Assembly: GCA_964647585.1 (NCBI GenBank)
Contig: CAZYGG010000008.1
Location: 2,643 to 66,642, forward strand
Source: an uncultured Desulfobacterales bacterium
GTDB taxonomy: Bacteria; Desulfobacterota; Desulfobacteria; Desulfobacterales; CAJINA01
Reading direction: 5' to 3'
DNA length: 64,000 nucleotides
Made by a program: the position numbers and the translations under genes. The notes under the pieces are model-generated. The model did not search any database. It was not told where the DNA came from and saw nothing but the letters and a program-made list of their open reading frames with translations. Positions 2,089 through 55,913 of the stretch are shown here, piece after piece. Position 1 is the stretch's first letter. Every line of letters begins with the position of its first letter.

Positions 2089-3441
2089 ATGAAAACCAAG
2101 ATCGCTGAAAAACTGAACAGAATTTCCGAATGCCCTGAAAACCTCACCAGGATTCTGGACAATCTCCAGGAAGGCATCATCGCGCATGACCTGGACCGCA
2201 ATATCTTTTTTTTCAACAGAACCGCTGAAATCATTACCGGTTACTCACGGGATGACGTCATAGCTCGGGACTGCCACCAGGCTTTCAGCGCCCCTTTTTG
2301 CAGCGGCGAGTGCCAATTTTGCGGAGATGCCGCCCCCCCCCCGGATACATCCAAAAAGGCCCTGACCATTACCACCAAGTCCGGTGAACAGCGCCGCATC
2401 GAGATGACCATCACCATGATGCGTGATGAGGACCAAGAACCTTTCGGGGTGCTGGCCGCTTTCAAAGACCTCACCGACCTCATCAACCTGCAGATAAAAT
2501 CCGGGGATATTCGCAGCTTCTCAAATATCATCGGCCAGGATATAAAAATGCTGCAGGTATTCCAGCAAATTAAAGATGTCGCGGCCTATGACTACCCCGT
2601 ACACGTTTACGGGCAAACCGGAACCGGTAAGGAACTGGTTGCTTCCGCGATTCACAATGAAAGCCCGCGCTCGGGCGAACCTTTTGTCCCCATAAACTGC
2701 GGTGCCTTGCCGGAAAGCCTGATCGAAAGCGAACTGTTCGGTCACGTAAAAGGGTCCTTTTCCGGGGCCATCCGTGACAAGAAGGGCCGTTTCGAACTGG
2801 CCGACAAAGGAACCATCTTCCTGGATGAAGTCGCCGAACTTTCCAAACTGATGCAGGTGAAGCTGCTGCGTTTTTTACAGGACGGTACCTTCGAAAGGGT
2901 GGGCGGCGAAAGGACCCAAAAAGTGGATGTCCGGGTGATCAGCGCCACCAACAAGGACCTGATGCAGGAGATCCAGGTGGAAAGATTCCGTGAAGACCTT
3001 TACTACCGGCTCAATGTTATCCCGGTCAACCTGCCGCCCCTGCAGGAACGCCGCACGGATATTCCCCTGCTGGTATCCCACTTTCTGAAAGAGGCCGGTC
3101 GACGCAACAGCAGCCCGGTGCCCACCATTACCGATGAGGCCCTGGGCGCTCTGATGGATTATGAGTGGCCGGGCAACGTTCGCGAACTGCAAAACGCGGT
3201 TCAGTTCGCGATTGTCAAAAGTACCCGGGATATCATTAAAAAGGGGGATCTGCCGCCGGAGATTTCCCGCCTCAGATCCGGTGACATGCCAACCCAGAGC
3301 CGCTCCGGCAAACTGGACATCGAAGCCGTCCAGACGGCCTTGAAAACCACCGGGGGCAACAAGGCCAAGGCCGCCAAACTACTCGGTGTCGGCCGGGCCA
3401 CGCTGTATCGGTTTTTAGGGGCCCACGAAGATGTATTTTAA
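2089..3441 (+). CDS. Sigma54-dependent enhancer-binding protein with Cys-rich PAS domain (OrpR-like)
   Basis: PAS domain with C-X8-C-X3-C-X2-C; Walker A GQTGTGKE; ESELFGHVKGSFSGA; FLDEV; WPGNVRELQN; C-terminal Fis-type HTH. Confidence 0.9.
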   Translation: MKTKIAEKLNRISECPENLTRILDNLQEGIIAHDLDRNIFFFNRTAEIITGYSRDDVIARDCHQAFSAPFCSGECQFCGDAAPPPDTSKKALTITTKSGEQRRIEMTITMMRDEDQEPFGVLAAFKDLTDLINLQIKSGDIRSFSNIIGQDIKMLQVFQQIKDVAAYDYPVHVYGQTGTGKELVASAIHNESPRSGEPFVPINCGALPESLIESELFGHVKGSFSGAIRDKKGRFELADKGTIFLDEVAELSKLMQVKLLRFLQDGTFERVGGERTQKVDVRVISATNKDLMQEIQVERFREDLYYRLNVIPVNLPPLQERRTDIPLLVSHFLKEAGRRNSSPVPTITDEALGALMDYEWPGNVRELQNAVQFAIVKSTRDIIKKGDLPPEISRLRSGDMPTQSRSGKLDIEAVQTALKTTGGNKAKAAKLLGVGRATLYRFLGAHEDVF

Positions 3442-3500
3442 CTGACTTGAGGGGCCGAGGGGTCAAGGATTCAAGGGGCCAAAGGTAAAACATAAAAATA

Positions 3501-3538
3501 TAAAAGCCACCCCGGAATTATTTCCGGGATGGCTTTTA
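3501..3538. terminator. Bidirectional intrinsic terminator
   Basis: TAAAAGCCACCCCGGAA / TTCCGGGATGGCTTTTA hairpin between convergent genes. Confidence 0.7.
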
Positions 3539-3583
3539 CGGTTTTGGGGTTGGATTCAAGTTTTTCAACCTTGAACCCTGATT

Positions 3584-5554
3584 TTAAGCCGCATCAATCT
3601 CTCTTCTGGCGGCCATGTCGGTGAGCACGCGCTCACGGGCCTTATCGATGCCGAGTTCCTGCCGCTTCTTGTCGATATGGGCAATCATCAAACGGGCCAT
3701 CTCGTAAGGATCAGGCGCAAAGCCCCATTTCCCAAAACCCATCTCCTCAAGGCCCCCAAACAGCAGGTTGTGGAATTTGGTGTCCTCAATGGTCGGAAAG
3801 GTCACCCCGAAAATGGTGTAAACACCGGACGCAACGAAATACTGGCCAATGGCTATCGCCTTTTCACTCATCCACTCGGGGGCCGCTCCGGCCGCGGGCA
3901 GATCGGCGATGCTTTCGCCCAGGCCACCCATTTTCACCATCTCGGTAGCTGCCAGTAAAATGCGGCTGTTATCCACACAGGCCCCCAGCCCCAGAACAGG
4001 CGGCATGCCAACCGTCTCGCACACTTCACTCAACCCGGGCCCGGCCAGAACCGCGGCCTCCGGCGAGGTCAGCCCGGCTTTGGCCAGAGCAATCTGGGAA
4101 CAGCCGGTCTGCAGGACCAGCACGTCATTTTTAATCAGCTCTTTTACAAGTTCGACATGTACCCAGTCCTGTTTGACCCGCGGGTTGGTACAGCCCACAA
4201 CCCCGGCCACACCTCGGATACGACCATTGATGACGTTATCATTCAGCGGTGCGTAAGAGCCGCGGAAAGAGCCACCCAGCATGTAATCGATGTAATCATG
4301 CGAGAAGCCATGCACCCCGGTGTTGACAATCTGTGGAATTTCAACCGGCATGGTCCGATTTTTAAACCGGCTGATGGCGCGAATAACGACATCATCCGTG
4401 CAGGCTTTTGGATCGTGTTCATCAAATTCAAGGTGGGTAGCGCCTTCAATTTTACACCTGGGATTGGTGGTAAACATCGGCGTGTTATAGCAACCGGCCA
4501 CTTTGGCCAGGCCCTGTTTGATGCACTGGATATCAACGGTAAACGCATCAACCGCTCCGGTCACCAGCACCGCTTCAGTTGACATGAAGTTACCGGCATG
4601 CGGAATACCATGGCGGACCATCATCTCTGCGCCGGAACAGCACATGCCTACCAGGTTAAGTCCCTGGGCGCCGGCATCTTTGGCCGCCTGGATCAGCGAA
4701 GGCTCATTTACCGACGCAATCATAGACTCAAACAGGTTGGGTTCATGGCCATGGACAATAATATTGACCTGGTCCTCTTTCAACACCCCCATATTGACTT
4801 CAACCGAGACGGGTACCGGGGTTCCAAAGAGAATGTCGGATATTTCCGTCGCAACCATCGATCCGCCCCACCCGTCGGCCAATGCCGTCCGGCTGCACTG
4901 CTGGACAATATTGTTGTAGTCCTGGTCCACGCCCATATGCGTGCGGTTCATCATCTCCATAATTTCGCGCATGGCTCCCCGAGGGACCAGGTCATGTTTA
5001 CGCCAAAGCTCCAGGGTTTTTTCAGGTGCCCGGCGGGCCAGGGGAATTTCACCTTCTACCTGGGTATAGGTTTTCTCCAGTTCATCACAGACAGCCAGGG
5101 CAATCTCCTGGACGCTCTTGCCCTCCATATCAATGCCCATATCGGCCGCCGTCCGCTCAAGCTTGCGCGGGTTGCGGATGGTATACTCCTTGATGTGCCC
5201 CTCGGCCACTTCCCTGAAGAGCGCCAGCATGGCCATACCATGGTCTGTATGGGAAGATGTGCCGGTGGCCACCATTCTGCCAAAGTTGCGGGCCTGGATC
5301 GTATCGATGGTCGCACCGCAAACGCCAACCTTGCCATACGGGTCTCTGGCATTGAGGCGACAGGGCCCCATGGCGCAATGCTTACAGCAGGCTGAATCCC
5401 TACCAATGGGACAGGCTTTCATATTCAGCGCCCGGTCAAAGGTTGTTTCCACACCGTCGCGCCTGGCTTTTTCAAGCATCTGCTCGGTTGCTTCACAGCT
5501 GGTCAGGGTTTTAAGATCTACTTCCTTCTTGGAAGCTTTTTTATCGATGGCCAT
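3584..5554 (-). CDS. cooS: Anaerobic Ni-Fe carbon monoxide dehydrogenase catalytic subunit
   Basis: CPIG..CCKHCAMGPC (D/B clusters), HGHEP, GMCCSG, DIQC, VVGCTN, TGCS, GACVDN, MSEKA motifs. Confidence 0.95.
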   Translation of the reverse strand: MAIDKKASKKEVDLKTLTSCEATEQMLEKARRDGVETTFDRALNMKACPIGRDSACCKHCAMGPCRLNARDPYGKVGVCGATIDTIQARNFGRMVATGTSSHTDHGMAMLALFREVAEGHIKEYTIRNPRKLERTAADMGIDMEGKSVQEIALAVCDELEKTYTQVEGEIPLARRAPEKTLELWRKHDLVPRGAMREIMEMMNRTHMGVDQDYNNIVQQCSRTALADGWGGSMVATEISDILFGTPVPVSVEVNMGVLKEDQVNIIVHGHEPNLFESMIASVNEPSLIQAAKDAGAQGLNLVGMCCSGAEMMVRHGIPHAGNFMSTEAVLVTGAVDAFTVDIQCIKQGLAKVAGCYNTPMFTTNPRCKIEGATHLEFDEHDPKACTDDVVIRAISRFKNRTMPVEIPQIVNTGVHGFSHDYIDYMLGGSFRGSYAPLNDNVINGRIRGVAGVVGCTNPRVKQDWVHVELVKELIKNDVLVLQTGCSQIALAKAGLTSPEAAVLAGPGLSEVCETVGMPPVLGLGACVDNSRILLAATEMVKMGGLGESIADLPAAGAAPEWMSEKAIAIGQYFVASGVYTIFGVTFPTIEDTKFHNLLFGGLEEMGFGKWGFAPDPYEMARLMIAHIDKKRQELGIDKARERVLTDMAARREIDAA

Positions 5555-11513: not shown

Positions 11514-12848
11514 TCAGGCGATTTCCTTGGCGTAGGCTTCCTTGGCTTTTTTCAGAATGTCGCTGATCTCGATTTTAGACGGGCAGACAAAACTGCAAAG
11601 GCCGCATTCAACACAATCCAGCAGTCCCAGGGCCAGGGCTTCTTCGATTTCATCCGCCTCCACGGCCTTGAACGTGAACTGGGGCAGGATATCCACCGGG
11701 CACACCCGGGCGCAATAGCCGCAGTTGATGCAGGCGCGGTCCTCTCCGTTCAGGTCGCATTCCAACACCATCGGGCCGGGATTGAAAACCGACGTAAAGG
11801 CCCGCGATCGGCTGGCCTTCCGATAACCCGGCATAACAAAACCAAAAAGCTCCTTGGGGTCACCGGCCGGCATCAGCGTCAGGGCGGTTTCATAAAAACC
11901 GAGGTAGGTATCTATGGCGGTACTGTATCCATTGAATATCCCCCCGGCCACCAGGCGCAGGCCATCGGGTTCCACAGCACCGATAAGGTCGCTCAACGGG
12001 GCGCCCGCCCGGGTCAGGAGATGCTTTTTTCGACTGCTGCGCGGTCCCCCCACCGCCACCACTTTTTCAACCGGATAGACACCGCTGCGCAGGCCCGCCG
12101 ACAGGGTCAGGAGATCCTGGCCGGTGATGTACCACGCCCGGTTCTCTTGTGAAGATGTCTTTACATGATACAAAACAGTGGCCGGGTCATCCGCCGGGTA
12201 ATCCCCTTTGATCATGTGGGTGATACGGCTGTCAATTCCAGCGATACCGGTACCGCCCCCTCCGGCGGTTATCAGAACCCGGTCGGAGAGTTTTGAGAGA
12301 AGATCCAGACCATACTCAAAATCATCCTCGCGGCCTTTGAGGTACACCTGCGGATCCGGGTGAAATGGGGCCTGCGACCCGAGGCTGACAATGACCAGTG
12401 GCGGTTTCGCCGCCGGGTCGGGTATATCTTTAAAAGGTAAGGATCTGAAAAGGGGCCACAGGCTGCCGGCCAGCAGGGCATCGACCAGCTCCTGGCGATC
12501 GGCGGCCGCCACGCTTTCCGGTGAGAAGGCCGGCTGGTTCAGGGTTTCTGCCTGCTCATCCAGCTCAATGATAATTTCAGTGACGACTCTGCGCGGGCCA
12601 TAGCTGATTGCGGCCACTCGGCCTGACCCCGGGGAGGGAAAGGTTATCCGGGGATTGCGTTTATCCTCGCAAAGGGGCGCCCCGGCCAGTACCCGGTCCC
12701 CTTCTTTCACCTTCAGCCTGGGTTTGACAAACGGTATTTTGTCCGGGTGGAACCCAACTTTTGAAGGGGGCGGGAGGATTTCAAGGTCAGCAGACGGGCT
12801 GCCCGCCAGGTTCAGGTCGTAGCCATTCTTGACAGTTACAGTAACCAT
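11514..12848 (-). CDS. nqrA: Na+-NQR subunit A with C-terminal 2x[4Fe-4S] motifs
   Basis: Start MVTVTVKNGYDLNLAG with GGAG RBS; KPRLKVKEGD, PSPGSG; CINCGYCARVCP and CVECGLCSFVCP. Confidence 0.88.
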   Translation of the reverse strand: MVTVTVKNGYDLNLAGSPSADLEILPPPSKVGFHPDKIPFVKPRLKVKEGDRVLAGAPLCEDKRNPRITFPSPGSGRVAAISYGPRRVVTEIIIELDEQAETLNQPAFSPESVAAADRQELVDALLAGSLWPLFRSLPFKDIPDPAAKPPLVIVSLGSQAPFHPDPQVYLKGREDDFEYGLDLLSKLSDRVLITAGGGGTGIAGIDSRITHMIKGDYPADDPATVLYHVKTSSQENRAWYITGQDLLTLSAGLRSGVYPVEKVVAVGGPRSSRKKHLLTRAGAPLSDLIGAVEPDGLRLVAGGIFNGYSTAIDTYLGFYETALTLMPAGDPKELFGFVMPGYRKASRSRAFTSVFNPGPMVLECDLNGEDRACINCGYCARVCPVDILPQFTFKAVEADEIEEALALGLLDCVECGLCSFVCPSKIEISDILKKAKEAYAKEIA

Positions 12849-13013
12849 AGAAACTCCGCTATCGCTTCCCGTTGAAATGGGGGTCGTGCATGTCCCGCCC
12901 GGCGGGATCCAAATGGCACGGCAGTGTCTTTGCTCAAATTTGGTGTCGCCCCTGCCGTCAGGGGTATGCAACTAAAAAACAGGTAACGCCGAACGCATCT
13001 CCTGTAATCTGGT

Positions 13014-13029
13014 AGCAACTATCATGCCG
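13014..13029 (-). promoter_or_regulatory. Sigma54-type promoter of the nqr operon
   Basis: CGGCAT-GATAG-TTGCT on the minus strand. Confidence 0.6.
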
Positions 13030-13164: not shown

Positions 13165-13374
13165 ATGAGTGAAACTACCAAAAAAATCAAACAGGTGTGC
13201 GAATGTGAAAATTGCGGCAATGAGGCTGAGATGGTGGTCACCTGCACGCTTGAGGATGAAAGCCCGGCCGCCGATGCACCCGCCCACGAACACAAACACC
13301 AACCGGGGAAGGTCAAAGGGACCGCCACATGCACAAGTTGCGGCAATGAAGCCGACATGTGGGTGGACCTGTAG
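13165..13374 (+). CDS. Small Cys-rich zinc-ribbon-like protein
   Basis: AAGGAG RBS; internal repeat CENCGNEAEM / CTSCGNEADM. Confidence 0.75.
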   Translation: MSETTKKIKQVCECENCGNEAEMVVTCTLEDESPAADAPAHEHKHQPGKVKGTATCTSCGNEADMWVDL

Positions 13375-13504: not shown

Positions 13505-13630
13505 CCCCTGCAGCCAACTGCAGGGAATGTTCTGCCGTTCGACAGTGCTTCGCAGCCCCGTTAAGGGATTCTGCTTTATTTTCAGATGCGCTCGCTAACC
13601 CCGCAGCAAGCTGCGGGGAATGCGCTCGCT
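13505..13630. repeat. Paired REP-like palindromes
   Basis: CCCCTGCAGCCAACTGCAGGGAAT and CCCCGCAGCAAGCTGCGGGGAAT; ATGCGCTCGCT direct repeat flanks the second. Confidence 0.6.
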
Positions 13631-13655
13631 GATTCGGTCCAAGAGGGCATTGGCT

Positions 13656-14066
13656 TTGGAAGTACAGAAAAATATGCGGATGACCCGCCAGAGAGCGGTT
13701 ATTCTTGAAGAATTGCGAAATTCCGAGGCACACCCCAGTGCGGACGAGCTGTACCAGATGGTTCGCAAGCGGCTGCCCCGGATCAGTCTGGGAACGGTGT
13801 ATCGCAACCTTGAAATCCTGGCCGAACTGGGTGAAATCCAGAAACTGGAGTTGAGTGGTGCGCTGAAAAGATATGACGGCCACCCCCACCGGCACTACCA
13901 CATCCGCTGCGTTCGGTGTGACACGGTGATCAACGCGCCGATTGCGCCGTTGAACCAGCTCGAAGACGAGCTTTACGAAACAACTGTTTTCGAGATCATT
14001 GGGCATAACCTTGAATTCACCGGATTGTGCCCGGCCTGTTCGCGGGATCAGGAAAAGGCCTCATAG
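13656..14066 (+). CDS. Fur-family repressor, probably PerR
   Basis: TRQRAVILE, HPSADELY, SLGTVYRNL, HYHIRCVRC, C-terminal CPAC; start uncertain (TTG 13656 or ATG 13674). Confidence 0.85.
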   Translation: MEVQKNMRMTRQRAVILEELRNSEAHPSADELYQMVRKRLPRISLGTVYRNLEILAELGEIQKLELSGALKRYDGHPHRHYHIRCVRCDTVINAPIAPLNQLEDELYETTVFEIIGHNLEFTGLCPACSRDQEKAS

Positions 14067-14153: not shown

Positions 14154-14203
14154 TGTATTGCGATACACTTGTGTATCAGTAGTCGACGAGACAAAACCGT
14201 CCC
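14154..14203. promoter_or_regulatory. Putative enhancer (tandem UAS) upstream of citrate synthase
   Basis: GATACA-CTTG-TGTATC at 14162-14177 and degenerate GAGACA-AAAC-CGTCCC at 14188-14203. Confidence 0.55.
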
Positions 14204-14311
14204 CCGCATAAGTTTGCTTGTCCGCAGGCCCCCTAAATTTTTTTATATGTATATTCAATAGGTTAAATTGTTTTGTAAGGATTGGGGGTTTATCGCGACC
14301 AACTGACAGGG

Positions 14312-14327
14312 TGGCACGGAATTTGAA
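14312..14327 (+). promoter_or_regulatory. Sigma54-type promoter (TTGA -12 variant)
   Basis: TGGCAC-GGAAT-TTGAA. Confidence 0.55.
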
Positions 14328-14453: not shown

Positions 14454-15632
14454 ATGGAAGAATGCGGAATTGTCCAAAACACCGGCTTAAGAGGCGTTAC
14501 CATTGCCAGCACAAAAATCAGCGACGTGGATGGCCAAAAGGGCAAACTGGTCTACAGGGGCTATCTGGCCAAAGACCTGGCCGGAAACATCACGTTCGAG
14601 GAAGTTGCCTTTCTGCTCCTATATGAAAAATTACCGGACCAGGCGGAACTGTCGGCCTTCGCGGATGAGCTTGCCAAAAACAGGGATCTGCCACAGAATA
14701 TTTTTGCCGCGATGGCGGGTTTCCCAAAAGATGCCCTTCCCATGGATGTACTCCAGGCCGTGGTCCCCATGCTGGCCCATCACGATCCGGGGGTAAATGA
14801 ACACTCCCAGGAAAGCGCCCTTGCAATCGCCATCAAGCTGATCGCCAAGTTCCCCGCTATCGTGGCGGCCTGGGAACGCATCCGCAACGGCAAGGCCCCC
14901 GTTGATCCGGATCCGGCTCTCGGGCACGCGGCCAATTTCTTTTACATGCTGACCGGCGAAGTCCCGGATGCAGACCTGGCCGGCTTTTTTGATACGGCCC
15001 TGGTGCTGCATGCGGAGCACTCTTTTAACGCTTCTACTTTTGCCGCCCGCGAGGTCGCCTCCACCAAGGCTCACATGTATGCCTCGGTCGCCGCGGCAGT
15101 CGGTTCGCTTTCGGGCCCCCTGCATGGCGGCGCCAACACCCGGGTCATGCTCATGCTCCAGGATATCGGATCGGCAGATAAGGTAGAGGCCTATGTCCAG
15201 AACATATTGGACACCGGCGGGGTTATCATGGGACTCGGTCACGCCGTCTACCAGACCGACGACCCCCGGGCCCACATCCTGGCCCCCATGTCAAAAACCC
15301 TGGGTGAACGGGCCGGGGATACCACCTGGTACGATCTCTCCAAAAAACTCGAGATGGTGGGCAAGCAGGCCTTCAAAGAGAAAAAGGGACGGGAAATTTA
15401 TGTGAATGTCGATTTCTACAGTGCCTCACTCTACTACTACATGGGCATCGCTCCAGATCAGTTCACGCCGATATTTGCCATTTCCCGAATCGCGGGATGG
15501 GCCGCCCACGTGATCGAAGAGCAATTCGGTGGCGCTGCGGCCAAACCGGCCCTGTACCGACCGGAGTCCGATTATGTTGGCGATTACTGCGGACCGGACG
15601 AGTGTACGTTTGTACCGGTTGATGACCGTTGA
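14454..15632 (+). CDS. gltA: Si-citrate synthase (citrate/2-methylcitrate synthase family)
   Basis: LHAEHSFNAST, GPLHGGAN, MGLGHAVY..DPR, NVDFYS motifs. Confidence 0.9.
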   Translation: MEECGIVQNTGLRGVTIASTKISDVDGQKGKLVYRGYLAKDLAGNITFEEVAFLLLYEKLPDQAELSAFADELAKNRDLPQNIFAAMAGFPKDALPMDVLQAVVPMLAHHDPGVNEHSQESALAIAIKLIAKFPAIVAAWERIRNGKAPVDPDPALGHAANFFYMLTGEVPDADLAGFFDTALVLHAEHSFNASTFAAREVASTKAHMYASVAAAVGSLSGPLHGGANTRVMLMLQDIGSADKVEAYVQNILDTGGVIMGLGHAVYQTDDPRAHILAPMSKTLGERAGDTTWYDLSKKLEMVGKQAFKEKKGREIYVNVDFYSASLYYYMGIAPDQFTPIFAISRIAGWAAHVIEEQFGGAAAKPALYRPESDYVGDYCGPDECTFVPVDDR

Positions 15633-15672
15633 TCGATATTATGCCGGTTGACGAAAATTTTTTCTGTTTGCG

Positions 15673-15763: not shown

Positions 15764-15821
15764 TCATAGAGTAATCGGAGCCTAATTTTGGCAACAGGCT
15801 CAGTATATAGGAGAATAGAAG

Positions 15822-34830: not shown

Positions 34831-34832
34831 AT

Positions 34833-42101: not shown

Positions 42102-43890
42102 CCGCTACCAGGAGCTCGGCCCGTTTATCCGCCTGTTAAAATCCCACCGGAAAAGGATGCTGGTGGGCATCCTTCTAGGACTGGTAGCCGTTGGTTCTGC
42201 CGTGGGCCTGTTGTCATTGGCGGGCTGGTTCCTGACTGCTGCAGCTATTGCGTCACTATCCGCTGCCGGCACCTGGCAGTTCAATTTCTTTTTGCCGAGT
42301 ATCGGAGTCCGCCTGTTTGCCTTTGGTCGCACCCTGGCACGCTATGGCGAACGGGTCGTCAACCACGATACGACTTTCAGAATACTTGAAAACCTCCGGG
42401 TGTGGTTCTACCGTCATATCGAACCACTGGCGCCGGCCTGCCTGTCTAGATATCGCAGCGGCGACATTCTCAACCGGCTCGTAGAAGACATCGACACCCT
42501 GGACAACCTTTATGTACGCGTCCTGTCTCCTTCGGCCGCCTTCCTGGCTGTGTCTGTGCTGCTTTGCGGGCTTCTATGGCTGTTCGATCCGGCCATCGCG
42601 GTTGTCGCCCTGGCGTTTCTGGCGGTTGCCGGCGGTATGGTTCCGTATGCCGCCGCATGGCTCGGTGCGGAAACCGGTCGCAGACTTGGTCGCCAGAGCG
42701 CCGGGCTGCGGGTGCGCATCGTGGAGGGACTGCAGGGGCTGCCGGAACTGCTGGTGTACGGGGCGCAGGTGCGCCACCTGGAAGCGATCCGCCAGGATGC
42801 CGATGAGCTCATGGCCGCCCAGCGCCGCATGAGCCACATCACAGGATTCACCAGTACGCTGATTACCCTCCTATCCGGGCTTGCCGTCACTTTCACGCTG
42901 TATCTCGGCGTGGACCGCATCGATATGGCCGCCGAGTATGGCGGGGCTGTGCTCACCCTCGTGGCCCTGGCTGTCATGGCTTCGTATGAGGCCGTCTGGC
43001 CGCTGCCCACAGCCTTTCAATTTTTGGGTAGAACCCGTGAGGCCGGCCGCCGTCTGGTGGAAATCGTAGCGGCGGAGCCGGCTGTACGCTACCCGGGGAA
43101 GTCCGGATCCGTTCCGAAGCAATCCGGTTTAACATTCGAAAATGTCAGCTTTCGCTATGCTGAAAAAGCCCCCCTTGTCCTGGATAGCCTGAATTTTCAG
43201 GCGGAGGCAGGGCGCCGGGTAGCCGTATTGGGGACAACGGGTTCAGGTAAAACCACGCTCGTGAATCTGCTGGTAAGGTTCTGGGAACCAACTGCGGGCC
43301 GCATCTGCATCGACGGTGTGGATATACGGTCACTGGGTGAAGCGGACCTGCGCCGGAGTATTTCCGTGGTGTCCCAGCAAGCTCACATTTTCAGCACCAG
43401 CCTGCGGAACAACCTGCGCATGGCCCGCGCCGATGCCACGGATGCCGACCTGAGAGAAGCACTGGCGGCGGCCCAACTGCTGTCGTTCGTCGACAGCCTG
43501 CCGGACGGCCTGGACACCTGGGTCGGAGAGGCGGGTAAGTTGCTTTCCGGCGGGCAGGCCCGGCGGCTGGCCGTGGCCCGGGCCTTTGTTCACGATGCGC
43601 CGATCTGGGTCTTGGATGAACCTACCGAAGGGCTGGACCGGGTGACGGAAAGGCGGCTGATGCAGGCCATAATGGAACGGACAGTGGGGAAAACCGTGGT
43701 GCTGATCACCCATCGAATGGTCGACATTCACCGCATGGACGAATCCATCCTGATCGAAAACGGCCGCATCGCCGCCCGGGGACGCCACGCCGCCCTTCTG
43801 CCACACAACCCGAGATACCGACGCTTCTGGGGGTACCCTCCGACAGAATCCCCACCTGCCGGTAAGAATGATCAAACGCTCTCCAGCTAA
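42094..43890 (+). CDS. cydC: Thiol reductant/heme ABC exporter CydC
   Basis: RTLARYGERVVNHD, GTTGSGKT, LSGGQARR; ATG 42094 with GGAGG RBS. Confidence 0.93.
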   Translation: MASRYQELGPFIRLLKSHRKRMLVGILLGLVAVGSAVGLLSLAGWFLTAAAIASLSAAGTWQFNFFLPSIGVRLFAFGRTLARYGERVVNHDTTFRILENLRVWFYRHIEPLAPACLSRYRSGDILNRLVEDIDTLDNLYVRVLSPSAAFLAVSVLLCGLLWLFDPAIAVVALAFLAVAGGMVPYAAAWLGAETGRRLGRQSAGLRVRIVEGLQGLPELLVYGAQVRHLEAIRQDADELMAAQRRMSHITGFTSTLITLLSGLAVTFTLYLGVDRIDMAAEYGGAVLTLVALAVMASYEAVWPLPTAFQFLGRTREAGRRLVEIVAAEPAVRYPGKSGSVPKQSGLTFENVSFRYAEKAPLVLDSLNFQAEAGRRVAVLGTTGSGKTTLVNLLVRFWEPTAGRICIDGVDIRSLGEADLRRSISVVSQQAHIFSTSLRNNLRMARADATDADLREALAAAQLLSFVDSLPDGLDTWVGEAGKLLSGGQARRLAVARAFVHDAPIWVLDEPTEGLDRVTERRLMQAIMERTVGKTVVLITHRMVDIHRMDESILIENGRIAARGRHAALLPHNPRYRRFWGYPPTESPPAGKNDQTLSS

Positions 43891-44116: not shown

Positions 44117-44554
44117 ATGCGTCTAACAAGAGCCGGTGAATATGCGGTGCGCTGCGCACTCTACCTCTCCTATCAGGGCGAAGGTGTGACCACGAGCCGC
44201 AGAGAAATCGCCCGGGTCATGGACATCCCGAATCAATTCCTGAGCAAAATTGCCCCGCAGCTGGCCAAAGCGCAAATTATCGAAATCATTCAGGGGGCCA
44301 AGGGCGGCTACCGGCTGATCATATCCCCGGACAAGCTGACCATGCTGGACGTGGTGGAAGCTGTTATCGGCGAGATTTTTCTGAACGACTGCGTCCTGCG
44401 GCCCGAATCGTGTCAACGCGCCCCAGCTTGCTCGGCCCACCAGGTCTGGGACAAAGCTCGGAATCAGCTCCGAAACACTCTCAGGCAGACCAGTTTCAAG
44501 CAAATGCTCGAAGATGAGAGCTGCGGCCAGGATCAACTGAAAACGCCGCGATAA
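44117..44554 (+). CDS. Rrf2-family transcriptional regulator
   Basis: EYAVR, QGAKGGYRL, C-X5-C-X5-C-X2-H putative Fe-S ligands. Confidence 0.92.
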   Translation: MRLTRAGEYAVRCALYLSYQGEGVTTSRREIARVMDIPNQFLSKIAPQLAKAQIIEIIQGAKGGYRLIISPDKLTMLDVVEAVIGEIFLNDCVLRPESCQRAPACSAHQVWDKARNQLRNTLRQTSFKQMLEDESCGQDQLKTPR

Positions 44555-44651
44555 CGACCGGCGCTGTATAAATTCCGAAACAGGAAAAAATTTTTATTGT
44601 ATATCGTTCCGCAAAACGAACGGAATAAATTATCGTCAAGGAGGGAAGTTT

Positions 44652-46016
44652 ATGGATGCGCTACTTTTATCGAGAATCCAGTTTGCGACCACAACTATGT
44701 TCCATTTCCTGTTTGTCCCTTTGACCCTGGGACTCTCGTTTATAATGGCATACATGGAGACCAAATATGTCAAAACAGGGGACGAGATGTACCTGAAGAT
44801 GACCAAATTCTGGGGCAAACTGTTTCTCATAAATTTTGCCGTGGGGGTGGTCACCGGCATCACCCTCGAGTTTCAGTTTGGAACCAACTGGTCTCTCTAC
44901 TCCGCCTATGTAGGGGATATTTTTGGTTCCCTGCTGGCAATTGAGGCAACCGCCACATTTTTCCTGGAATCCACCATGATCGGTGTCTGGATTTTCGGGT
45001 GGAAAAAGCTGTCGAAAAAGGCGCACGCCGCAGTGATGTGGCTGGTGTTTTTGGGCTCCAACCTTTCGGCCGTATGGATATTGATCGTCAACGCCTGGAT
45101 GCAGAGTCCCGTCGGCTTTACCATGCGCGACGGCAGAGCGGAGCTCGTCGATTTTGGTGCCGTCATCACCCAAAAATTTGCCATTGTTAAGTTCATCCAC
45201 ACAGCCAGCTCCGCTTACACCCTGGCGGCTTTCTTCGTCATGGGTATCAGCGCCTACCATCTGCTCAAGAAAAAGAATGTCGAATTCTTTACCCGTTCGT
45301 TTCGCATCGGACTGGGTTTCGCCCTCATCTTTTCTTTGACAGTTTTCATCATGGGGGACTTGAACGGCGTGGTGGTCGGTGAAAAACAACCGACCAAACT
45401 GGCAGCCATGGAGTCTCTCTGGGAAACCCAGAGAAAAGCGCCGGTTTACATGTTTGCATGGCCGGACCCGGAAAACGAGCGCAATGCCGTTGAAATCGGG
45501 GCCATTCCCGGTCTGCTCAGCTTTCTGATCTTTCACGACATCAATGCAGAGGTCCGCGGTCTCAATGACTTCCCCAAAGATGAACGCCCGCCAGTCCTGC
45601 TGACATCCTTTGCCTTCAAGGGCATGGTGGGCATCGGGGTAATTTTAATCCTGCTGCCCATAATCGGCTGGATTAAACGGAAAAAACTGCTTGAAAACCC
45701 ACTGTATCTGAAGATCATGATGTTTGCCATCCCATTGCCCTATCTTGCGATCCAGCTGGGTTGGATCGTGACTGAATTCGGCCGCCAGCCCTGGATCGTC
45801 TACGGCCTGATGAAGACTTCGCAGGGGGTTTCGCCCGTGCCCCCCCACCAGGTGTTTATTTCCCTGGGCGGTTTTATTCTGGTATACAGCATCCTGGGTC
45901 TGGCAGGGTTTTCCCTTATTACCAAATATGCCAAGCAGGGACCGGATCCCGATAGCGAAGATGCGGCGGATGATGCCATCGCCGGCGATGGAGACGCGCA
46001 ACCGGCAGTGTCCTGA
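44652..46016 (+). CDS. cydA: Cytochrome bd quinol oxidase subunit I
   Basis: FHFLFVPLT, EFQFGTNW, QPTKLAAME, EFGRQPW. Confidence 0.96.
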   Translation: MDALLLSRIQFATTTMFHFLFVPLTLGLSFIMAYMETKYVKTGDEMYLKMTKFWGKLFLINFAVGVVTGITLEFQFGTNWSLYSAYVGDIFGSLLAIEATATFFLESTMIGVWIFGWKKLSKKAHAAVMWLVFLGSNLSAVWILIVNAWMQSPVGFTMRDGRAELVDFGAVITQKFAIVKFIHTASSAYTLAAFFVMGISAYHLLKKKNVEFFTRSFRIGLGFALIFSLTVFIMGDLNGVVVGEKQPTKLAAMESLWETQRKAPVYMFAWPDPENERNAVEIGAIPGLLSFLIFHDINAEVRGLNDFPKDERPPVLLTSFAFKGMVGIGVILILLPIIGWIKRKKLLENPLYLKIMMFAIPLPYLAIQLGWIVTEFGRQPWIVYGLMKTSQGVSPVPPHQVFISLGGFILVYSILGLAGFSLITKYAKQGPDPDSEDAADDAIAGDGDAQPAVS

Positions 46017-46089
46017 ACCGATACCAGCGACCAGCTAAAGCGTAAGCTAACAACAATAATGATAACTATGAGAATAGTAGGAGAATAAA

Positions 46090-47106
46090 ATGGCTTTACA
46101 AACAACATGGTTCTTTCTTTGGGGACTCATTTGGGCGCTCTTTTTCATGACCGGCGGTTACGACCTCGGTATCGGCAGTCTTTACCCGTTCCTTGGCAAA
46201 ACCGAGCAGGACAAACGGATGATGATCAATGCCAAAGGCCCCCTGTGGGACGGTAATCAGGTGTGGCTGCTCACAGCGGGCGGGGTGACATTTGCCGCCT
46301 TCCCGCTAGTATACGCCACCATGTTTTCAACCCTGTATGCCGCCTTGATGTTGATCCTTTTCGCACTGATCATTCGGGGGGTTTCCTTTGAATTTCGCCA
46401 TCAACTCGATGATCCCCGCTGGACCAAGGTCTGGGACACCTGTATTTTCATCGGCAGTATCGCGCCGGCCATTCTTTTCGGTGTGGCGTTCGCCAATATT
46501 TTTCAAGGCATCCCCTTCGACGGAAAGGGTATTTACCAGGGTACGCTGTTTACACTTTTGAATCCTTACGGCCTGCTGGGCGGCGTACTGTTTCTGCTGC
46601 TGTTCATGCAGCACGGCGCATTGTGGCTGGCCATCAGAACCACCGGCGATCTTCAAAAGCGGGCCGTAGGCACTGCCAAGATCCTGTGGCCGGTGCTGCT
46701 GGTGGTTGCCGTGATTTTCCTGATAGCCAGCTGGTTTGCCACCAACCTGTATGAAAACTATCTGGCCCACCCGGCATTTTTCCTGGTCATTGTTCTGGCG
46801 GTAGCCGGGCTCCTCCTGGCCAGGCTGTTTGTGGCCAAGCAGGCCTATTTCAAAGCCTGGTTCGCCTCGGCCCTGACCATCATCGGCTGCACATTTTTCG
46901 GCGTGGTCGGGTTGTTCCCGAGCCTGTTTCCATCGAGCATCAACCCGCGGTTCAATTTGACCGCGTTCAATGCCTCGTCCAGCCCGCTGACGCTGAAGAT
47001 CATGTTGACGGTGGTTGTTATATTCGTACCCATCGTGCTTGCATATCAGATCTGGGCTTACAATCTGTTTAAAACCAAGGTGGAAAAAGAAGACCTGGTC
47101 TACTAA
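46090..47106 (+). CDS. cydB: Cytochrome bd quinol oxidase subunit II
   Basis: GYDLGIG, GPLWDGNQVW, RGVSFEFR. Confidence 0.96.
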   Translation: MALQTTWFFLWGLIWALFFMTGGYDLGIGSLYPFLGKTEQDKRMMINAKGPLWDGNQVWLLTAGGVTFAAFPLVYATMFSTLYAALMLILFALIIRGVSFEFRHQLDDPRWTKVWDTCIFIGSIAPAILFGVAFANIFQGIPFDGKGIYQGTLFTLLNPYGLLGGVLFLLLFMQHGALWLAIRTTGDLQKRAVGTAKILWPVLLVVAVIFLIASWFATNLYENYLAHPAFFLVIVLAVAGLLLARLFVAKQAYFKAWFASALTIIGCTFFGVVGLFPSLFPSSINPRFNLTAFNASSSPLTLKIMLTVVVIFVPIVLAYQIWAYNLFKTKVEKEDLVY

Positions 47107-51529: not shown

Positions 51530-51982
51530 TCAGTTCCCTCCCGCGAGATAATTAAGATGCCGCTCTATTTCCGGCTTTGGGGGGGCTCCGGGAATCGTGT
51601 TCACCAGGCGGCCACCGTTGAAAAACAGCAGGGTGGGCACACTTAAAACATTGAACCGCGATGAAATCAGCGGGTTCTGGTCGACATTCAGCTTGGCGAT
51701 TTTTACAACACCGGCAAATTCCGAGGCCAACTGGTTCAGTATCGGGGCCATCTGTTTGCAGGGGCCGCACCAGGGCGCCCAGCAATCCAGCATCACCGGC
51801 CCGGGGAAAGCGGTAATTTCCTCGTTGAAGGTCGCATCCGTCACCGTGAGCGGACCGGTCGCGGCCGACGGCAGGGATGCCTGGCATTTGCCGCACACCG
51901 GCTTGTCGGCAAGCCGTTCCCCTGGCACCCGGTTGCGGGTTCCACACTTGTTGCATCGCAAAATTCTATCTCCAGTTCCCAT
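51530..51982 (-). CDS. trxC: Thioredoxin 2 with zinc finger
   Basis: CNKC...CGKC plus WCGPC. Confidence 0.92.
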   Translation of the reverse strand: MGTGDRILRCNKCGTRNRVPGERLADKPVCGKCQASLPSAATGPLTVTDATFNEEITAFPGPVMLDCWAPWCGPCKQMAPILNQLASEFAGVVKIAKLNVDQNPLISSRFNVLSVPTLLFFNGGRLVNTIPGAPPKPEIERHLNYLAGGN

Positions 51983-52063: not shown

Positions 52064-52110
52064 TACAAATTACATGCCATATGTATTATTTTTTTGGCAT
52101 AAGGTTTGCG
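52064..52110. promoter_or_regulatory. Back-to-back sigma54-type promoters
   Basis: Plus strand TGGCAT-AAGGT-TTGCG (52095-52110); minus strand TGGCAT-GTAAT-TTGTA (52064-52079, weaker). Confidence 0.6.
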
Positions 52111-52191: not shown

Positions 52192-52398
52192 ATGGCAAAG
52201 AAACGGTATAAGATCAAATCGGCCTGTCCCCAGTGCGGATGCAGTTATCTCACCACCCTGTCTGCCGAGGAGATAAAGGCTAAATACCCGGATGTTGAGA
52301 ATGTTCATCTCGAGTGCGGCGAATGCATGCTCGAGTATGAAACTAAAATGGCCGAAGCCTGCCCCGAATGGGATGACGAATGCAAATTAAAAGAGTAA
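52192..52398 (+). CDS. Small Cys-rich zinc-ribbon-like protein
   Basis: GGAGG RBS; CPQCGC, CGEC, C-X6-C. Confidence 0.75.
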   Translation: MAKKRYKIKSACPQCGCSYLTTLSAEEIKAKYPDVENVHLECGECMLEYETKMAEACPEWDDECKLKE

Positions 52399-53140: not shown

Positions 53141-53276
53141 ACGGCGTAGCCAATTATCTCAGACCTGCCCCTGAGGACTATGTTTTTAAGGGTGGAATAG
53201 ACACCCACCAGCCGGTTTCCCCAAAACAGTTTGGGGAAACCGGAACTGCCTCACACCCGAAACCGCCTCAAACACT

Positions 53277-53292
53277 GAGACACACTTGTCTC
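53277..53292. promoter_or_regulatory. Putative enhancer (UAS) upstream of nifUS
   Basis: GAGACA-CACT-TGTCTC. Confidence 0.55.
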
Positions 53293-53365
53293 AAAAAGTC
53301 TCTATTTCTCTGTCCCAAACCTTTATACAGGTCTCAAAACCGCCCATTACACATGGCTGCTGGGA

Positions 53366-53381
53366 TGGCACGAAAATTGAT
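53366..53381 (+). promoter_or_regulatory. Sigma54-type promoter (TTGA variant)
   Basis: TGGCAC-GAAAA-TTGAT. Confidence 0.5.
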
Positions 53382-53555: not shown

Positions 53556-54383
53556 ATGTGGGATTACACTGAAAAAGTAAAAGAACATTTCCTGAATCCG
53601 CGTAATGTCGGTTTCATCGAAAACGCCGACGGTATCGGTGAGGTCGGTTCCATGGCGTGCGGCGACGCCCTGAAACTGACTTTTAAACTCGACGATAAAG
53701 AAAAAATCAGCGACGCTAAATTCCAGACTTTCGGCTGTGCCAGCGCCATTGCATCTTCTTCAGCGCTGACTGAGATCATCAAGGGCCTCTCTCTCGATGA
53801 AGCCATGCAGGTTACCAATGACGAAATCGCTCAATACCTGGGCGGGCTGCCCAAGCAGAAAATGCACTGCTCGGTGCTGGGCCGGGATGCCCTCGAAAAA
53901 GCCATCTCCTACTATCGGGGTGAACCCGATAAAAAGGTCGAAGGTGAAATCGTGTGTGAGTGTTTTGGCATCACCAACCTGGATATCCGGCGCGCCGTCT
54001 CGGAAAACGGTTTAAAGAGCGTGGAAGACGTCACCGATTACGTCAAAGCCGGCGGCGGCTGCGGCAATTGCCATGATAAAATTGAAGCGATTATCGCCGA
54101 AGTGACCGGTACAGCCATAGAAGCGGAACCCAAACGCCGTGTCCTTACCAATATTCAAAAAATCCGGTTAGTTGAAGAAACGCTTGAACGTGAGATCAAA
54201 CCGGTGCTGAAAAAAGACGGCGGTGATATCGAACTGGTGGATCTGGACGGGAACCGAATCCTGGTCAAACTCCACGGGCGCTGCAGCACCTGTGCCGCCT
54301 CCCAGGTAACCCTGAAAGACTATGTCCAGGCCAAAATCCAGGAACTTGTGTCTCCGGAACTTGAAGTGGAAGAGGTGCAATAA
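53556..54383 (+). CDS. nifU: Fe-S cluster assembly scaffold NifU
   Basis: IscU domain (ACGD, FGCASA, MHCS), BFD-like CEC..CGNC, Nfu domain CSTC; GGAGG RBS before ATG 53556. Confidence 0.95.
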   Translation: MWDYTEKVKEHFLNPRNVGFIENADGIGEVGSMACGDALKLTFKLDDKEKISDAKFQTFGCASAIASSSALTEIIKGLSLDEAMQVTNDEIAQYLGGLPKQKMHCSVLGRDALEKAISYYRGEPDKKVEGEIVCECFGITNLDIRRAVSENGLKSVEDVTDYVKAGGGCGNCHDKIEAIIAEVTGTAIEAEPKRRVLTNIQKIRLVEETLEREIKPVLKKDGGDIELVDLDGNRILVKLHGRCSTCAASQVTLKDYVQAKIQELVSPELEVEEVQ

Positions 54384-55552
54384 TGAAAACGATCTATGTC
54401 GATAACAATGCGACCACCATGGTGGCTCCCCGGGTCGTAGAGACGATGCTGCCCTACTTCTCGGAATTGTACGGGAATCCTTCCAGTATGCACAATTTTG
54501 GCGGCAAGGTCGGCGGGGCTATTGAGGAGGCCCGCAAAAAAGTAGCCGCATTGATTAACGCGTCCGCCAGTGAGATTGTTTTCACCAGCTGCGGTACCGA
54601 AAGCGACAGTACCGCCATCAAGGCCGTGCTGGCCGCCAACCCCGACAAACGCCATCTTGTAACCTCGCGGGTAGAACACCCGGCCATCAAGAACCTGTAT
54701 GAACAGCTGGCCTCCCAGGGATACCGGACAACTTTTGTACCGGTAAATGCCGACGGCGAACTTGACCTGGACTATCTTTATGACAACCTGACCGATGGTA
54801 CCGCCATTGTCAGTATCATGTGGGCCAACAATGAAACCGGCGTGATCTTCCCGGTCGAGGAGATTGCCGCAGAGGTCAGGAAACGAGGCATTGCTTTTCA
54901 TACCGACAGCGTGCAGGCCGCCGGCAAAGTCCCCATCGATGTAAAGGCCGCACCCATTGACATGCTCTCGCTTTCCGGGCACAAGCTGCACGCCCCCAAG
55001 GGCGTCGGCGTGCTCTATGTTCGTAAAGGCACCCGCTTTTCACCCTTTCTGGTCGGAGGTCACCAGGAAGGCGGACGCCGGGGCGGCACCGAAAATGTCG
55101 CATCCATTGTTGGGCTGGGTACGGCCGCTGAGCTTGCCGGTGAGGAGCTGGCAAACGGCAGCATCGACCGGATGGCTGCATTGCGGGATCGTCTGGAGAA
55201 AGGTCTTTTGGAAAGTGTGCCCCGATCCATGGTGAACGGCACTGTTAAAAGCCGCCTGCCCAACACCACCAGCATCAGCTTTGAATATGTGGAAGGTGAA
55301 GCGATCCTGCTGATGATGGACCAGTTGGGCATCTGTGCCTCTTCGGGCAGCGCGTGCACCTCGGGCTCCCTGGAGCCGTCCCATGTCTTAAGGGCCATGG
55401 GAGTACCGTTCACGGCAGCCCACGGCTCTATCCGCTATAGCCTCAGCACGTTCAACACCGAGGAAGAAATCGACTATATTGTGGCAAACATGCCCCCCGT
55501 CATCGACCGGCTGCGGCAAATGTCCCCCTTCTGGGAGCAGAACGCCGGTTAA
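54383..55552 (+). CDS. nifS: Cysteine desulfurase NifS
   Basis: DNNATT, SGHKLHAPKG, SSGSACTS. Confidence 0.95.
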   Translation: MKTIYVDNNATTMVAPRVVETMLPYFSELYGNPSSMHNFGGKVGGAIEEARKKVAALINASASEIVFTSCGTESDSTAIKAVLAANPDKRHLVTSRVEHPAIKNLYEQLASQGYRTTFVPVNADGELDLDYLYDNLTDGTAIVSIMWANNETGVIFPVEEIAAEVRKRGIAFHTDSVQAAGKVPIDVKAAPIDMLSLSGHKLHAPKGVGVLYVRKGTRFSPFLVGGHQEGGRRGGTENVASIVGLGTAAELAGEELANGSIDRMAALRDRLEKGLLESVPRSMVNGTVKSRLPNTTSISFEYVEGEAILLMMDQLGICASSGSACTSGSLEPSHVLRAMGVPFTAAHGSIRYSLSTFNTEEEIDYIVANMPPVIDRLRQMSPFWEQNAG

Positions 55553-55897
55553 GTCCTCGCCGGCAGCTGCGTCCCCTGCCCGTCTGATGCCCGGTGTCCG
55601 CATGGGATACCGGGCATTTGCAGTCAGGTTTTCAGGCCGAAGGCTGAAGGCAGAATAGAACATGTGTCTCATGATACGCTTATGTACCACCTAACCAAGC
55701 CCCGACGTCGTCAATAAGATAATATCAGAATTTCAGACATTTATACCACGCAAACCCCTTTGAACGATTCCCTCGGCACTATTTTTTGTATCGTAAAAAC
55801 CCGCTTAATTCGCCATATGGGTGCCCGCGGGTTTCCGGCGATCCACAAACGCTCATAATATTCTGTTTTAACTGTATTTATTCAAGGGCCTCAATAT

Positions 55898-55913
55898 TGG
55901 CATATATATTGAA
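55898..55913 (+). promoter_or_regulatory. Sigma54-type promoter (TTGA variant)
   Basis: TGGCAT-ATATA-TTGAA; degenerate UAS at 55665-55688. Confidence 0.5.

Follow-up and report, generated by a model that had tools for sequence, protein, structure and literature searches.

A candidate sigma-54-dependent oxygen- and redox-defence regulon with a shared palindromic enhancer in Desulfobacterales

How is oxygen defence induced in strict anaerobes at oxic-anoxic interfaces, such as those of marine sediments and mats? In Desulfovibrio it is known mainly from PerR/Fur-type repression, with release of the repressor at sigma-70 promoters. The question is raised here by a 64,000-nt stretch of contig CAZYGG010000008.1 (the window, by which we always mean this whole stretch) from the genome of an uncultured Desulfobacterales bacterium (4,150,688 bases in 147 contigs; labelled G000), which scans of its larger open reading frames (ORFs) against Pfam and NCBIfam identify as an island of redox and oxygen-defence genes, and in which promoters of the -24/-12 type are paired with a recurrent palindrome. 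We propose that these genes belong to a sigma-54-dependent oxygen/redox-defence regulon activated by the enhancer-binding protein (EBP) encoded at 2089-3441, an explanation that we consider, as a whole, reasonably probable. Its firmest part is that the enhancer-promoter pairs form a real regulon, of which we are highly confident. Such a regulon accounts for the fact that sigma-54 promoters are nowhere else in the genome as closely packed as in this island.

The genome contains rpoN (PF04552 match of 209.8 bits in a 476-aa open frame on contig C13). The strict promoter pattern TGGYAYN5TTGH was found 12 times in the window, where 1.58 +/- 1.16 matches were expected; this is an eight-fold excess, and none of 100 dinucleotide-preserving shuffles of the window reached 12. 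In a scan of the genome by 202 sliding 64-kb windows, strict matches were most frequent in this stretch, at 11-12 against a mean of 2.7. An earlier note on this DNA, made from the sequence alone, had reported ten -24/-12 motifs, all of which are present; eight fit the strict pattern, and those at 24618 (TTGG) and 13015 (CGGC) match it only with one mismatch. The note had drawn the ten promoters into one regulon. This stands for five of them, which are served by four enhancer regions lying 89-233 bp upstream; the other five have no enhancer in this genome. The five promoters and their enhancers are the following, G001 and G002 being genomes of the same genus, other G-numbers genomes of further relatives, and L-numbers loci extracted from these genomes:

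14312-14326, plus strand: promoter of the gltA operon, TGGCACGGAATTTGA; also found ahead of gltA in G001, G002, G003 and G022.
24379-24393, minus strand: promoter of the DVU0772-family gene, TGGCATGCTTGTTGC; kept in G001, G002 and G003.
24618-24632, plus strand: promoter of the ABC operon, TGGCATGAATCTTGG; identical in G001 and G002, one base different in G003.
53366-53380, plus strand: promoter of nifUS, TGGCACGAAAATTGA.
55898-55912, plus strand: promoter of the rubrerythrin cluster, TGGCATATATATTGA; promoters of the TTGA/TTGT type precede the rbr-dfx orthologues.
14154-14177, no strand: main site of enhancer A, TGTATT-GC-GATACA-CTTG-TGTATC, with three half-sites; core and flank identical in G002 (L039), near-identical in G001 (L032).
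14188-14203, no strand: second, degenerate palindrome of enhancer A, GAGACA-AAAC-CGTCCC, its centre 26 bp from the first; kept at the same offset in G002 and reading GAGACA-AAGC-CGTCTC in G001.
14253-14265, plus strand: weak IHF-like site between enhancer A and the promoter, ATTCAATAGGTTA, one mismatch to WATCAANNNNTTR.
24488-24511, no strand: enhancer B, TGTCTC-GC-GAGACA-TAAC-TGTATC, common to two divergent promoters; orthologous sites in G001, G002, G003 and G019.
53276-53293, no strand: enhancer C, T-GAGACA-CACT-TGTCTC-A, without the upstream extra half-site; G001, G002, G036 and G023 likewise have a palindrome in the interval from the ferritin-like gene to nifU.
55665-55688, no strand: enhancer D, degenerate, TGTCTC-AT-GATACG-CTTA-TGTACC; at its position exact palindromes precede rbr-dfx in ten relatives and in G374.

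The palindrome GAKACANNNNTGTMTC (GAKACA-N4-TGTMTC) has three exact matches in the window, at 14162, 24496 and 53277; the 100 shuffles contained not a single one. Only four exact copies exist in the whole 4.15-Mb genome; the fourth, at 4111 of contig C5, falls inside a 244-aa ORF reading like a putative response regulator and, by our own estimate, is about what chance would yield for a self-complementary pattern of this information content. The three copies in the window are all intergenic and start 150, 122/118 (the divergent pair) and 89 bp from the start of their promoters, in agreement with the earlier description of the palindrome upstream of -24/-12 motifs at three loci. The degenerate copies described at 14188 and 55673 carry two mismatches each and have a promoter-like site 124 and 225 bp downstream, respectively; comparison with relatives supports them, as a second gltA copy is found in both same-genus genomes and exact rbr-dfx palindromes occur in 10 of 40 relatives. 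The extra TGTMTY half-site that the note had seen before three copies lies 2 bp ahead of the core (TGTATT at 14154, TGTCTC at 24488 and TGTCTC at 55665), and it is absent upstream of the copy at 53277. Also borne out was a TTGA variant of the -12 element at three enhancer-linked promoters (14312, 53366 and 55898), which proved to be a family trait. An IHF-like site with at most one mismatch was found in one of the five enhancer-to-promoter intervals only, that of gltA, and we make no claim for IHF. Outside the window, the genome offered as further members only weak candidates with two mismatches and a nearby promoter-like site (C27:18218, C33:34542 and C38:10664).

The motif is conserved well beyond this genome. 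In 40 genomes of the same order we found 73 exact palindromes, all of which were extracted and inspected, against 17 for the reversed, non-complemented pattern used as a control. By a crude screen based on ORFs of at least 150 aa, 45 of the 73 are intergenic and 28 coding, where about 15% intergenic copies would be expected from the unmasked share of G000; two of the "coding" copies (L061 and L085) lie immediately ahead of dfx or rbr-dfx, and their assignment as coding is probably an artefact of the screen. With neighbouring genes identified by BLASTP to the window proteins, the intergenic palindromes recur before the same gene families despite gene orders that differ among the genomes: rbr-dfx in 10 of the 40, the DVU0772-family gene in 9, gltA in 4, nifUS in 4, the gene for a 187-aa ferritin-like protein in 3, that for CO dehydrogenase (CODH) in 2, cydAB in 2, and the VTT-reductase gene, DUF3786 and a trx-epimerase pair in 1 each. 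In G022 (L090) the palindrome lies between divergent gltA and nqrA genes, with a promoter-like site towards each. The earlier note had staked its proposal on enrichment or conservation of the motif upstream of orthologues, and this is what we observed, both throughout the order and in a family of the phylum beyond it.

In a set of 42 loci (44 sites) that by our judgement occupy a regulatory position, 33 have the pattern TGGYAY-N5-TTGN at 40-330 bp. The enhancer-promoter distances in relatives range from 50 to 326 bp and bunch at about 110-165 and 180-245 bp, and the -12 tetramers of 41 promoter hits are TTGA (21), TTGC (10), TTGT (6) and TTGG (4). When these 44 sites and the three of the window were aligned, a T before and an A after the core were present in 81% of the 47, even though the flanks had not been used for selection; the alignment also shows the flanking TGTMTY half-site and, in many sites, a further (AT)GAGACA about 10 bp on. 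Because these elements recur, the enhancer is, on the evidence of the alignment, an array of three to five half-sites. Variants of the form GAAACA-N4-TGTTTC, one or two mismatches away, precede the dfx, CODH and rbr genes of other species (L129, L133 and L108), which implies that the third half-site position is free. Four sediment metatranscriptomes were also compared: they held 5-12% of the sampled words, their short contigs, 92-99% alike and in coding parts, represent relatives and yielded no readable transcript starts, and the empty bins at two promoter regions are uninformative.

Some minor features of the sites are recorded here. On contig C27 of G000 an AT-rich pair of palindromes with one mismatch each lies at 47115 and 47183, 68 bp apart, with no promoter-like site nearby. 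The segment 53000-53160, between the ferritin-like gene and enhancer C, contains short repeats of CTAAAGT/ACTTTAG-like words, and the distance from palindrome to nifU is about 1.1 kb in G001 and G002 against 0.28 kb in the window. A genome of another family (G212, contig C89, 6332-6395) has a tandem array of four head-to-tail 16-mers, each matching the palindrome.

Which protein would act at these sites? The window encodes only one EBP:

2089-3441, plus strand: candidate activator of 450 aa, an EBP with PAS, sigma-54 AAA+ and Fis-type helix-turn-helix (HTH) domains (Pfam; AAA+ domain PF00158, E=1.3e-69).

The earlier note had named it as a possible regulator, and co-occurrence, synteny and, in several genomes, direct adjacency make it the best candidate on comparative grounds. 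Orthologues were found in 23 of the 40 relatives (the best 41 candidates per genome were scored, so that some absences are uncertain), with 83-84% identity within the genus and 55-67% elsewhere, paralogues reaching at most 43%. The relatives with a palindrome beside regulon homologues comprise 15 with the activator and 2 without it, and those with no such palindrome 8 and 15, respectively (odds ratio 14, Fisher p=0.001, a p-value overstated for genomes that are kin). Activator gene and site share a contig within 18 kb in nine relatives and are 10.7 kb apart in the window; in G009 the palindrome abuts the activator gene. The neighbours of the activator belong to regulon families: CODH adjoins it at 12 of 26 loci, and others are the DVU0772-family gene, rbr-dfx and cydAB. 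Two genomes of another family of the phylum, G177 and G324, have the palindrome next to the activator gene. In G177 two palindromes lie within 0.5 kb after it, ahead of DVU0772-like, rbr, dfx and trx genes, and in G324 a palindrome abuts its end; the rbr-dfx genes of G374 have two palindromes and a TTGA promoter upstream. A sample of 400 genomes of the phylum included 28 with the PAS domain (the best 10 candidates per genome were scored, so that here too some absences are uncertain), and an exact palindrome was present in 18 of these 28 and in 105 of the 372 others; the p-value of this association, 0.0002, is uncorrected for base composition or kinship and overstated. Together, these associations suggest that the protein encoded at 2089, rather than another EBP, is likely to be the activator of the regulon.

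The PAS domain of this protein carries four cysteines (C62, C71, C75 and C78) that 25-26 of 27 orthologue sequences share; the one exception is the protein of G009 (L126), which has an unrelated N-terminal domain and the same C-terminal HTH segment. The spacing C-x8-C-x3-C, conserved in 26 of the 27, is that of C52, C61 and C65 of OrpR (DVU2106) from Desulfovibrio vulgaris Hildenborough, which, according to the text of PMC8359166, is an activator of sigma-54 promoters whose PAS domain senses redox state through a [4Fe-4S] cluster and needs these three residues to do so. A search for the published OrpR operator, GGGCGYRTTTTGCGCCC, in the 400 genomes of the phylum recovered an orthologue of OrpR (locus L218), where the operator adjoins an EBP with cysteines at exactly 52, 61 and 65 and Mrp-like and other small genes lie on one side; this EBP bears the loop GAFTDA, the one given for DVU2106 in the part of PMC4641369 that lists such loops. 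In BLASTP the candidate activator is 38% identical to this protein over 425 residues (E=9e-98), and its C62, C71 and C75 align without gaps with C52, C61 and C65; C78 stands opposite a lysine and the recognition helix differs. The OrpR operator has no copy with fewer than two mismatches in this genome. As the identity is 38%, the recognition helix differs and no close copy of the operator exists, the activator is, as far as such comparisons go, a paralogue of OrpR with a DNA specificity of its own. Orthology to OrpR is ruled out by the paralogue-level identity, the operator and the different neighbours. By analogy with OrpR, we regard the chances that the activator contains an Fe-S redox sensor as even.

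A working model can be outlined from the known mode of action of EBPs. The upstream activating sequence would be built of TGTMTC/GAKACA half-sites around the core T-GAKACA-N4-TGTMTC-A, usually flanked by a half-site 2 bp off and often by another about 10 bp on. Activator dimers would bind these arrays and assemble into an ATPase ring which, after looping of the DNA, would remodel and open the closed Esigma54 complex at five promoters, predicted to drive gltA with AhpF-like/disulfide-reductase genes, the DVU0772-family gene, an amino-acid ABC importer, nifUS, and the genes for a 78-aa protein, rubrerythrin and superoxide reductase. Following the precedent of OrpR, an Fe-S cluster in the PAS domain may sense the redox state or oxygen and gate the ATPase. 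As to the polarity of this switch, we lean slightly towards oxidation turning the regulon on rather than off, because the regulon consists of detoxification, Fe-S rebuilding, cytochrome bd and oxygen-insensitive enzymes.

Several observations weigh against the proposed regulon and its activator. According to the text of PMC8359166, OrpR works in its reduced state and oxidation inactivates it, a precedent that predicts the opposite polarity. At the position of the GAFTGA loop the activator reads GSFSGA (GAFSGA in the consensus of its orthologues); GAFSGA and GSFTGA are listed as tolerated in the relevant part of PMC4641369, and the double variant is not among the tolerated loops given there. 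Eight relatives have the activator and no exact palindrome beside their regulon genes, one of them (G004) showing a copy with two mismatches. In G023 and G032, which are 94-95% complete, sites of the model type are present, but the PAS-Cys4 activator was not found, and searches with the PAS domain and with the G009 variant protein returned best hits only at the level of paralogues. A profile built from 16 activator orthologues, whose patterns are generic AAA+ peptides, retrieved seven orthologues (57-65% identity) among the 80 matches listed, at loci titled mostly as Desulfobacterales or deltaproteobacterial metagenome-assembled genomes; these seven loci (90 kb) contain no exact palindrome, just variants with one or two mismatches, and none was found in the 73 non-orthologous loci among the matches listed (1.06 Mb). 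About 30 EBP paralogues are encoded in the genome as possible alternative binders. Palindrome copies with two mismatches are not, by themselves, above chance (five intergenic hits for the real pattern and two for the reversed control). The CODH gene of this genome, although the steadiest neighbour of the activator, has one half-site only in its upstream region, and neither a palindrome nor a good -24/-12 site. Finally, the promoters at 13015, 35380, 35445, 52065 and 52095 have no enhancer copy here even when two mismatches are allowed, in accord with the earlier note, which had not found the enhancer at the nqr, 35.4-kb and 52-kb promoters:

13015-13029, minus strand: -24/-12-like site before nqrA, CGGCATGATAGTTGC; enhancer A is 1.1 kb off, and the nearest 330 bp are free of enhancer copies.
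35380-35394, minus strand, and 35445-35459, plus strand: divergent -24/-12 pair before the gene for a 185-aa ferritin-like protein and DUF3786 (minus) and the rhodanese-ferritin-like gene (plus).
52065-52079, minus strand, and 52095-52109, plus strand: divergent -24/-12 pair before thioredoxin (minus) and a Cys-rich 68-aa ORF with the 187-aa ferritin-like gene (plus); kept in G001 and G002 while the flanks drift.

These five promoters nevertheless look genuine. They may depend on another activator, on very degenerate sites or, in the case of nqrA, on enhancer A at 1.1 kb. Some genes that lack an enhancer in the window (trx, the 187-aa ferritin-like gene, DUF3786 and, once, nqrA) have orthologues in other genera that do bear the palindrome. 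Apart from the ten motifs, weak -24/-12-like sites were noticed on the minus strand at 33630 and 30444, and a further -24/-12 match on the same strand at 22263.

The alternative that survives best accepts the sigma-54 regulon and assigns the palindrome to another EBP, a paralogue or a variant sensor, the protein encoded at 2089 serving, for example, the adjacent CODH. The high frequency of CODH among the activator's neighbours speaks for it, and so do the sites of G023 and G032, the unrelated N-terminal domain of the EBP that adjoins the palindrome in G009, and a 37%-identical EBP situated in G022 (L089) between the palindrome and the orthologue-like gene. However, co-occurrence and linkage are seen throughout the order and outside it, the G009 protein retains the same C-terminal HTH segment, and in G012, G029 and G016 CODH itself is preceded by the palindrome and a -24/-12 element, so that in these genomes CODH belongs to the same regulon. 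We consider this alternative unlikely.

Far less probable is that the palindrome is the operator of a sigma-70-type regulator, such as the Fur/PerR-like protein encoded at 13620-14066 or the Rrf2 protein at 44117-44554, and lies near sigma-54 promoters by coincidence. The Fur-family gene does end 96 bp before enhancer A, an arrangement retained in G001-G003, and the Rrf2 gene precedes cydAB. Yet the sites are placed 89-330 bp upstream of the -24/-12 elements, at variable distances clustering around 125 and 227 bp, which is the position of an enhancer and not an overlap with the promoter; arrays of several half-sites suit EBP oligomers; and in L219, L220 and L126 the motif accompanies the activator gene with no Fur or Rrf2 homologue nearby by BLAST. 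PerR and Fur boxes are, moreover, AT-rich 7-1-7 repeats unlike GAKACA-N4-TGTMTC. That the matches reflect chance or a dispersed repeat without regulatory meaning is hardly credible, for in spite of the mere 12 specified positions of the pattern, the copies that look like chance (the coding one here and 28 of the 73 in relatives) and the weak showing of two-mismatch copies, this reading is already contradicted by the shuffles, by the excess over the reversed control, by copies that recur ahead of the same families in genomes whose gene order differs, and by flanking DNA that is not conserved as that of a repeat would be.

The proposed regulon shares elements with known systems and differs from each of them. 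Like OrpR, the candidate is a one-component activator of PAS-AAA+-Fis-HTH architecture with palindromic enhancers, bound putatively in our case, upstream of -24/-12 promoters. It differs in its enhancer (GAKACA-N4-TGTMTC here, GGGCGYRTTTTGCGCCC for OrpR), its recognition helix and the fourth conserved cysteine, C78; and whereas OrpR, as described in the text of PMC8359166, controls only the two orp operons for cell division that flank its own gene, many dispersed oxygen-defence operons are the predicted targets here. PexR of Myxococcus xanthus, an H2O2-sensing EBP that controls ahpC and katB, was presented in 2025 as the first of its kind and is found mainly in Myxococcota, with some occurrences in other phyla (PMC12754779, text). 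Common to PexR and the present system are the use of a sigma-54 activator, and not OxyR or PerR, for antioxidant genes and arrays of interrupted palindromes upstream of -24/-12 elements. In contrast to the Zn/Fe-binding GAF sensor, the CACCG-n6-CGGTG motif and the peroxiredoxin and catalase regulon of aerobic Myxococcota given for PexR in that text, we find a Cys4 PAS domain in strict anaerobes, with rubrerythrin, superoxide reductase, Fe-S assembly, cytochrome bd and CODH as the presumed targets; Pfam gave no GAF hit in the activator, which, with the different motif, places it outside the PexR family.

NorR and NifA enhancers have the forms GT-N7-AC and TGT-N10-ACA, respectively. The present sites resemble them in having multiple dyads with TGT...ACA ends 80-200 bp upstream and in belonging to a scheme in which a sensory domain gates the AAA+ ATPase, and differ in spacing (TGT-N8-ACA and ACA-N4-TGT interlaced), sensor domain and regulon. 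With PerR/Fur systems the target classes overlap (rubrerythrins and thiol reductases) and a Fur/PerR-like gene lies in the same island, but there a repressor is released at sigma-70 promoters, whereas here the promoters are activator-dependent, of the sigma-54 type and served by remote enhancers. PerR-type repression may coexist with sigma-54 control and not be displaced by it, as the Fur/PerR-like gene lies right beside the gltA enhancer.

The earlier note had called the regulon undescribed, and full-text literature searches, judged by the papers listed and by the main texts of those cited here, turned up no description of the motif or the regulon. The main text of PMC4641369 tabulates 37 EBP regulons for D. 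vulgaris, of which not one concerns oxygen defence, and the main text of a 2025 survey of sigma-54 regulons (PMC12316311) mentions neither rubrerythrin nor superoxide nor cytochrome bd. The EBP subfamily, the enhancer motif and the widely conserved regulon are thus what is new; the scheme of sigma-54 and EBP was already known.

As a tentative extension, which we hold to be somewhat improbable in its full form, many Desulfobacterales and at least one further family may have placed an aerotolerance programme on sigma-54 promoters under a dedicated Fe-S PAS activator, a sister of OrpR, that reads oxidation by an inverted OrpR logic, where the reduced, cluster-bearing form would be silent and the oxidised or cluster-free form active. 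Such a programme would comprise the removal of peroxide and superoxide, cytochrome bd, the rebuilding of Fe-S clusters, thiol reductases, an oxygen-tolerant CODH and oxygen-insensitive TCA enzymes (citrate synthase). Oxidant sensing would then have a third mode in addition to OxyR/PerR and PexR, and strict anaerobes their first. Independently of this extension, the finding provides a defined DNA motif, defined target operons that recur across the order and beyond, and a named candidate sensor with a testable cofactor hypothesis, and it suggests a probable role for the DVU0772 family, the 78-aa protein, the ferritin-like proteins and the CooS-type CODH.

The gene identities of the earlier note were upheld by Pfam or NCBIfam. 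The genes of the target operons are:

14454-20112, plus strand: gltA operon, with citrate synthase (14454-15632; Pfam) first.
15822-17420, plus strand: thioredoxin-domain/pyridine-nucleotide disulfide reductase of AhpF type, gltA operon (Pfam); its order with gltA is retained in G001-G003.
17420-17902, plus strand: thioesterase, gltA operon (Pfam).
17971-20112, plus strand: fusion of a VTT domain and a disulfide reductase, gltA operon (Pfam).
23958-24347, minus strand: DVU0772-family protein of 129 aa (NCBIfam NF045682, 112.5 bits), first gene after the minus-strand promoter; the orthologue adjoins the palindrome in G177 as well as in the nine relatives.
24738-27441, plus strand: amino-acid-type ABC uptake genes (permease, family-3 solute-binding protein, permease; Pfam), in the same order in G001-G003.
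53556-54383 and 54383-55552, plus strand: nifU and nifS, Fe-S assembly scaffold and cysteine desulfurase (Pfam; start set by the conserved N-terminus).
56065-56301, plus strand: 78-aa protein of no known family, first gene of the rubrerythrin operon (56065-57350).
56356-56931, plus strand: rubrerythrin (Pfam).
56976-57350, plus strand: superoxide reductase of desulfoferrodoxin type (Pfam).

The 78-aa protein has no match among NCBIfam families. By tblastn it is present in 16 extracted loci (14 distinct places) at 42-67% identity, and where it was mapped it is the first gene after a sigma-54 promoter, ahead of rbr-dfx or a ferritin-like gene; it may serve the activator as a partner or provide feedback. 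The other genes of the island that bear on the argument, in addition to several ferritin/rubrerythrin-like genes, are:

3584-5554, minus strand: monofunctional, CooS-like CODH catalytic subunit (Pfam Prismane; NCBIfam TIGR01702, 591 bits); preceded in other genera by the palindrome and a -24/-12 element (L073 and L074).
11514-12971, minus strand: nqrA, the end of an nqr/rnf-like operon (Pfam/NCBIfam).
13620-14066, plus strand: Fur/PerR-like gene, its best NCBIfam hits being PerR models, below their cut-offs.
27592-33198, minus strand: 2-oxoglutarate dehydrogenase complex, E1, E2 and E3 (Pfam/NCBIfam).
44117-47106: Rrf2 gene (44117-44554) followed by cydAB.
51530-51982, minus strand: thioredoxin.

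The 2-oxoglutarate dehydrogenase complex and citrate synthase may be oxygen-insensitive stand-ins for ferredoxin-dependent enzymes. With regard to CODH, the two closest EBP paralogues of the Cx8Cx3C type in this genome adjoin a second CODH and unrelated genes, respectively; at L207 (contig C9 of G000, 31000-43000) an EBP with a Cx8Cx3C PAS domain is divergent from the second CODH and from an Mrp/NBP35-like ATPase, and CODH genes seem repeatedly to accompany this PAS class.

In the neighbourhood of the DVU0772-family gene, the 251-aa plus-strand ORF at 22693-23448 is probably spurious, as the antisense 153-aa ORF at 22672-23133 (minus strand) is rubrerythrin-like, and a homologue of the latter comes after the DVU0772-family gene in relatives. 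Two small plus-strand ORFs, at 13165-13374 (69 aa) and 52192-52398 (68 aa), contain many CxxC pairs; the second is the first gene past the promoter at 52095, and its DNA is kept in G001 and G002. Lastly, the plus-strand ORF at 35517-36356, after the promoter at 35445, has an in-frame TGA (35736-35738) at the position expected for the active-site cysteine of a rhodanese (...MVY-TGA-AVGGRS...); taken as selenocysteine, a candidate reading, this codon would yield a single 279-aa protein with Rhodanese and Rubrerythrin domains.

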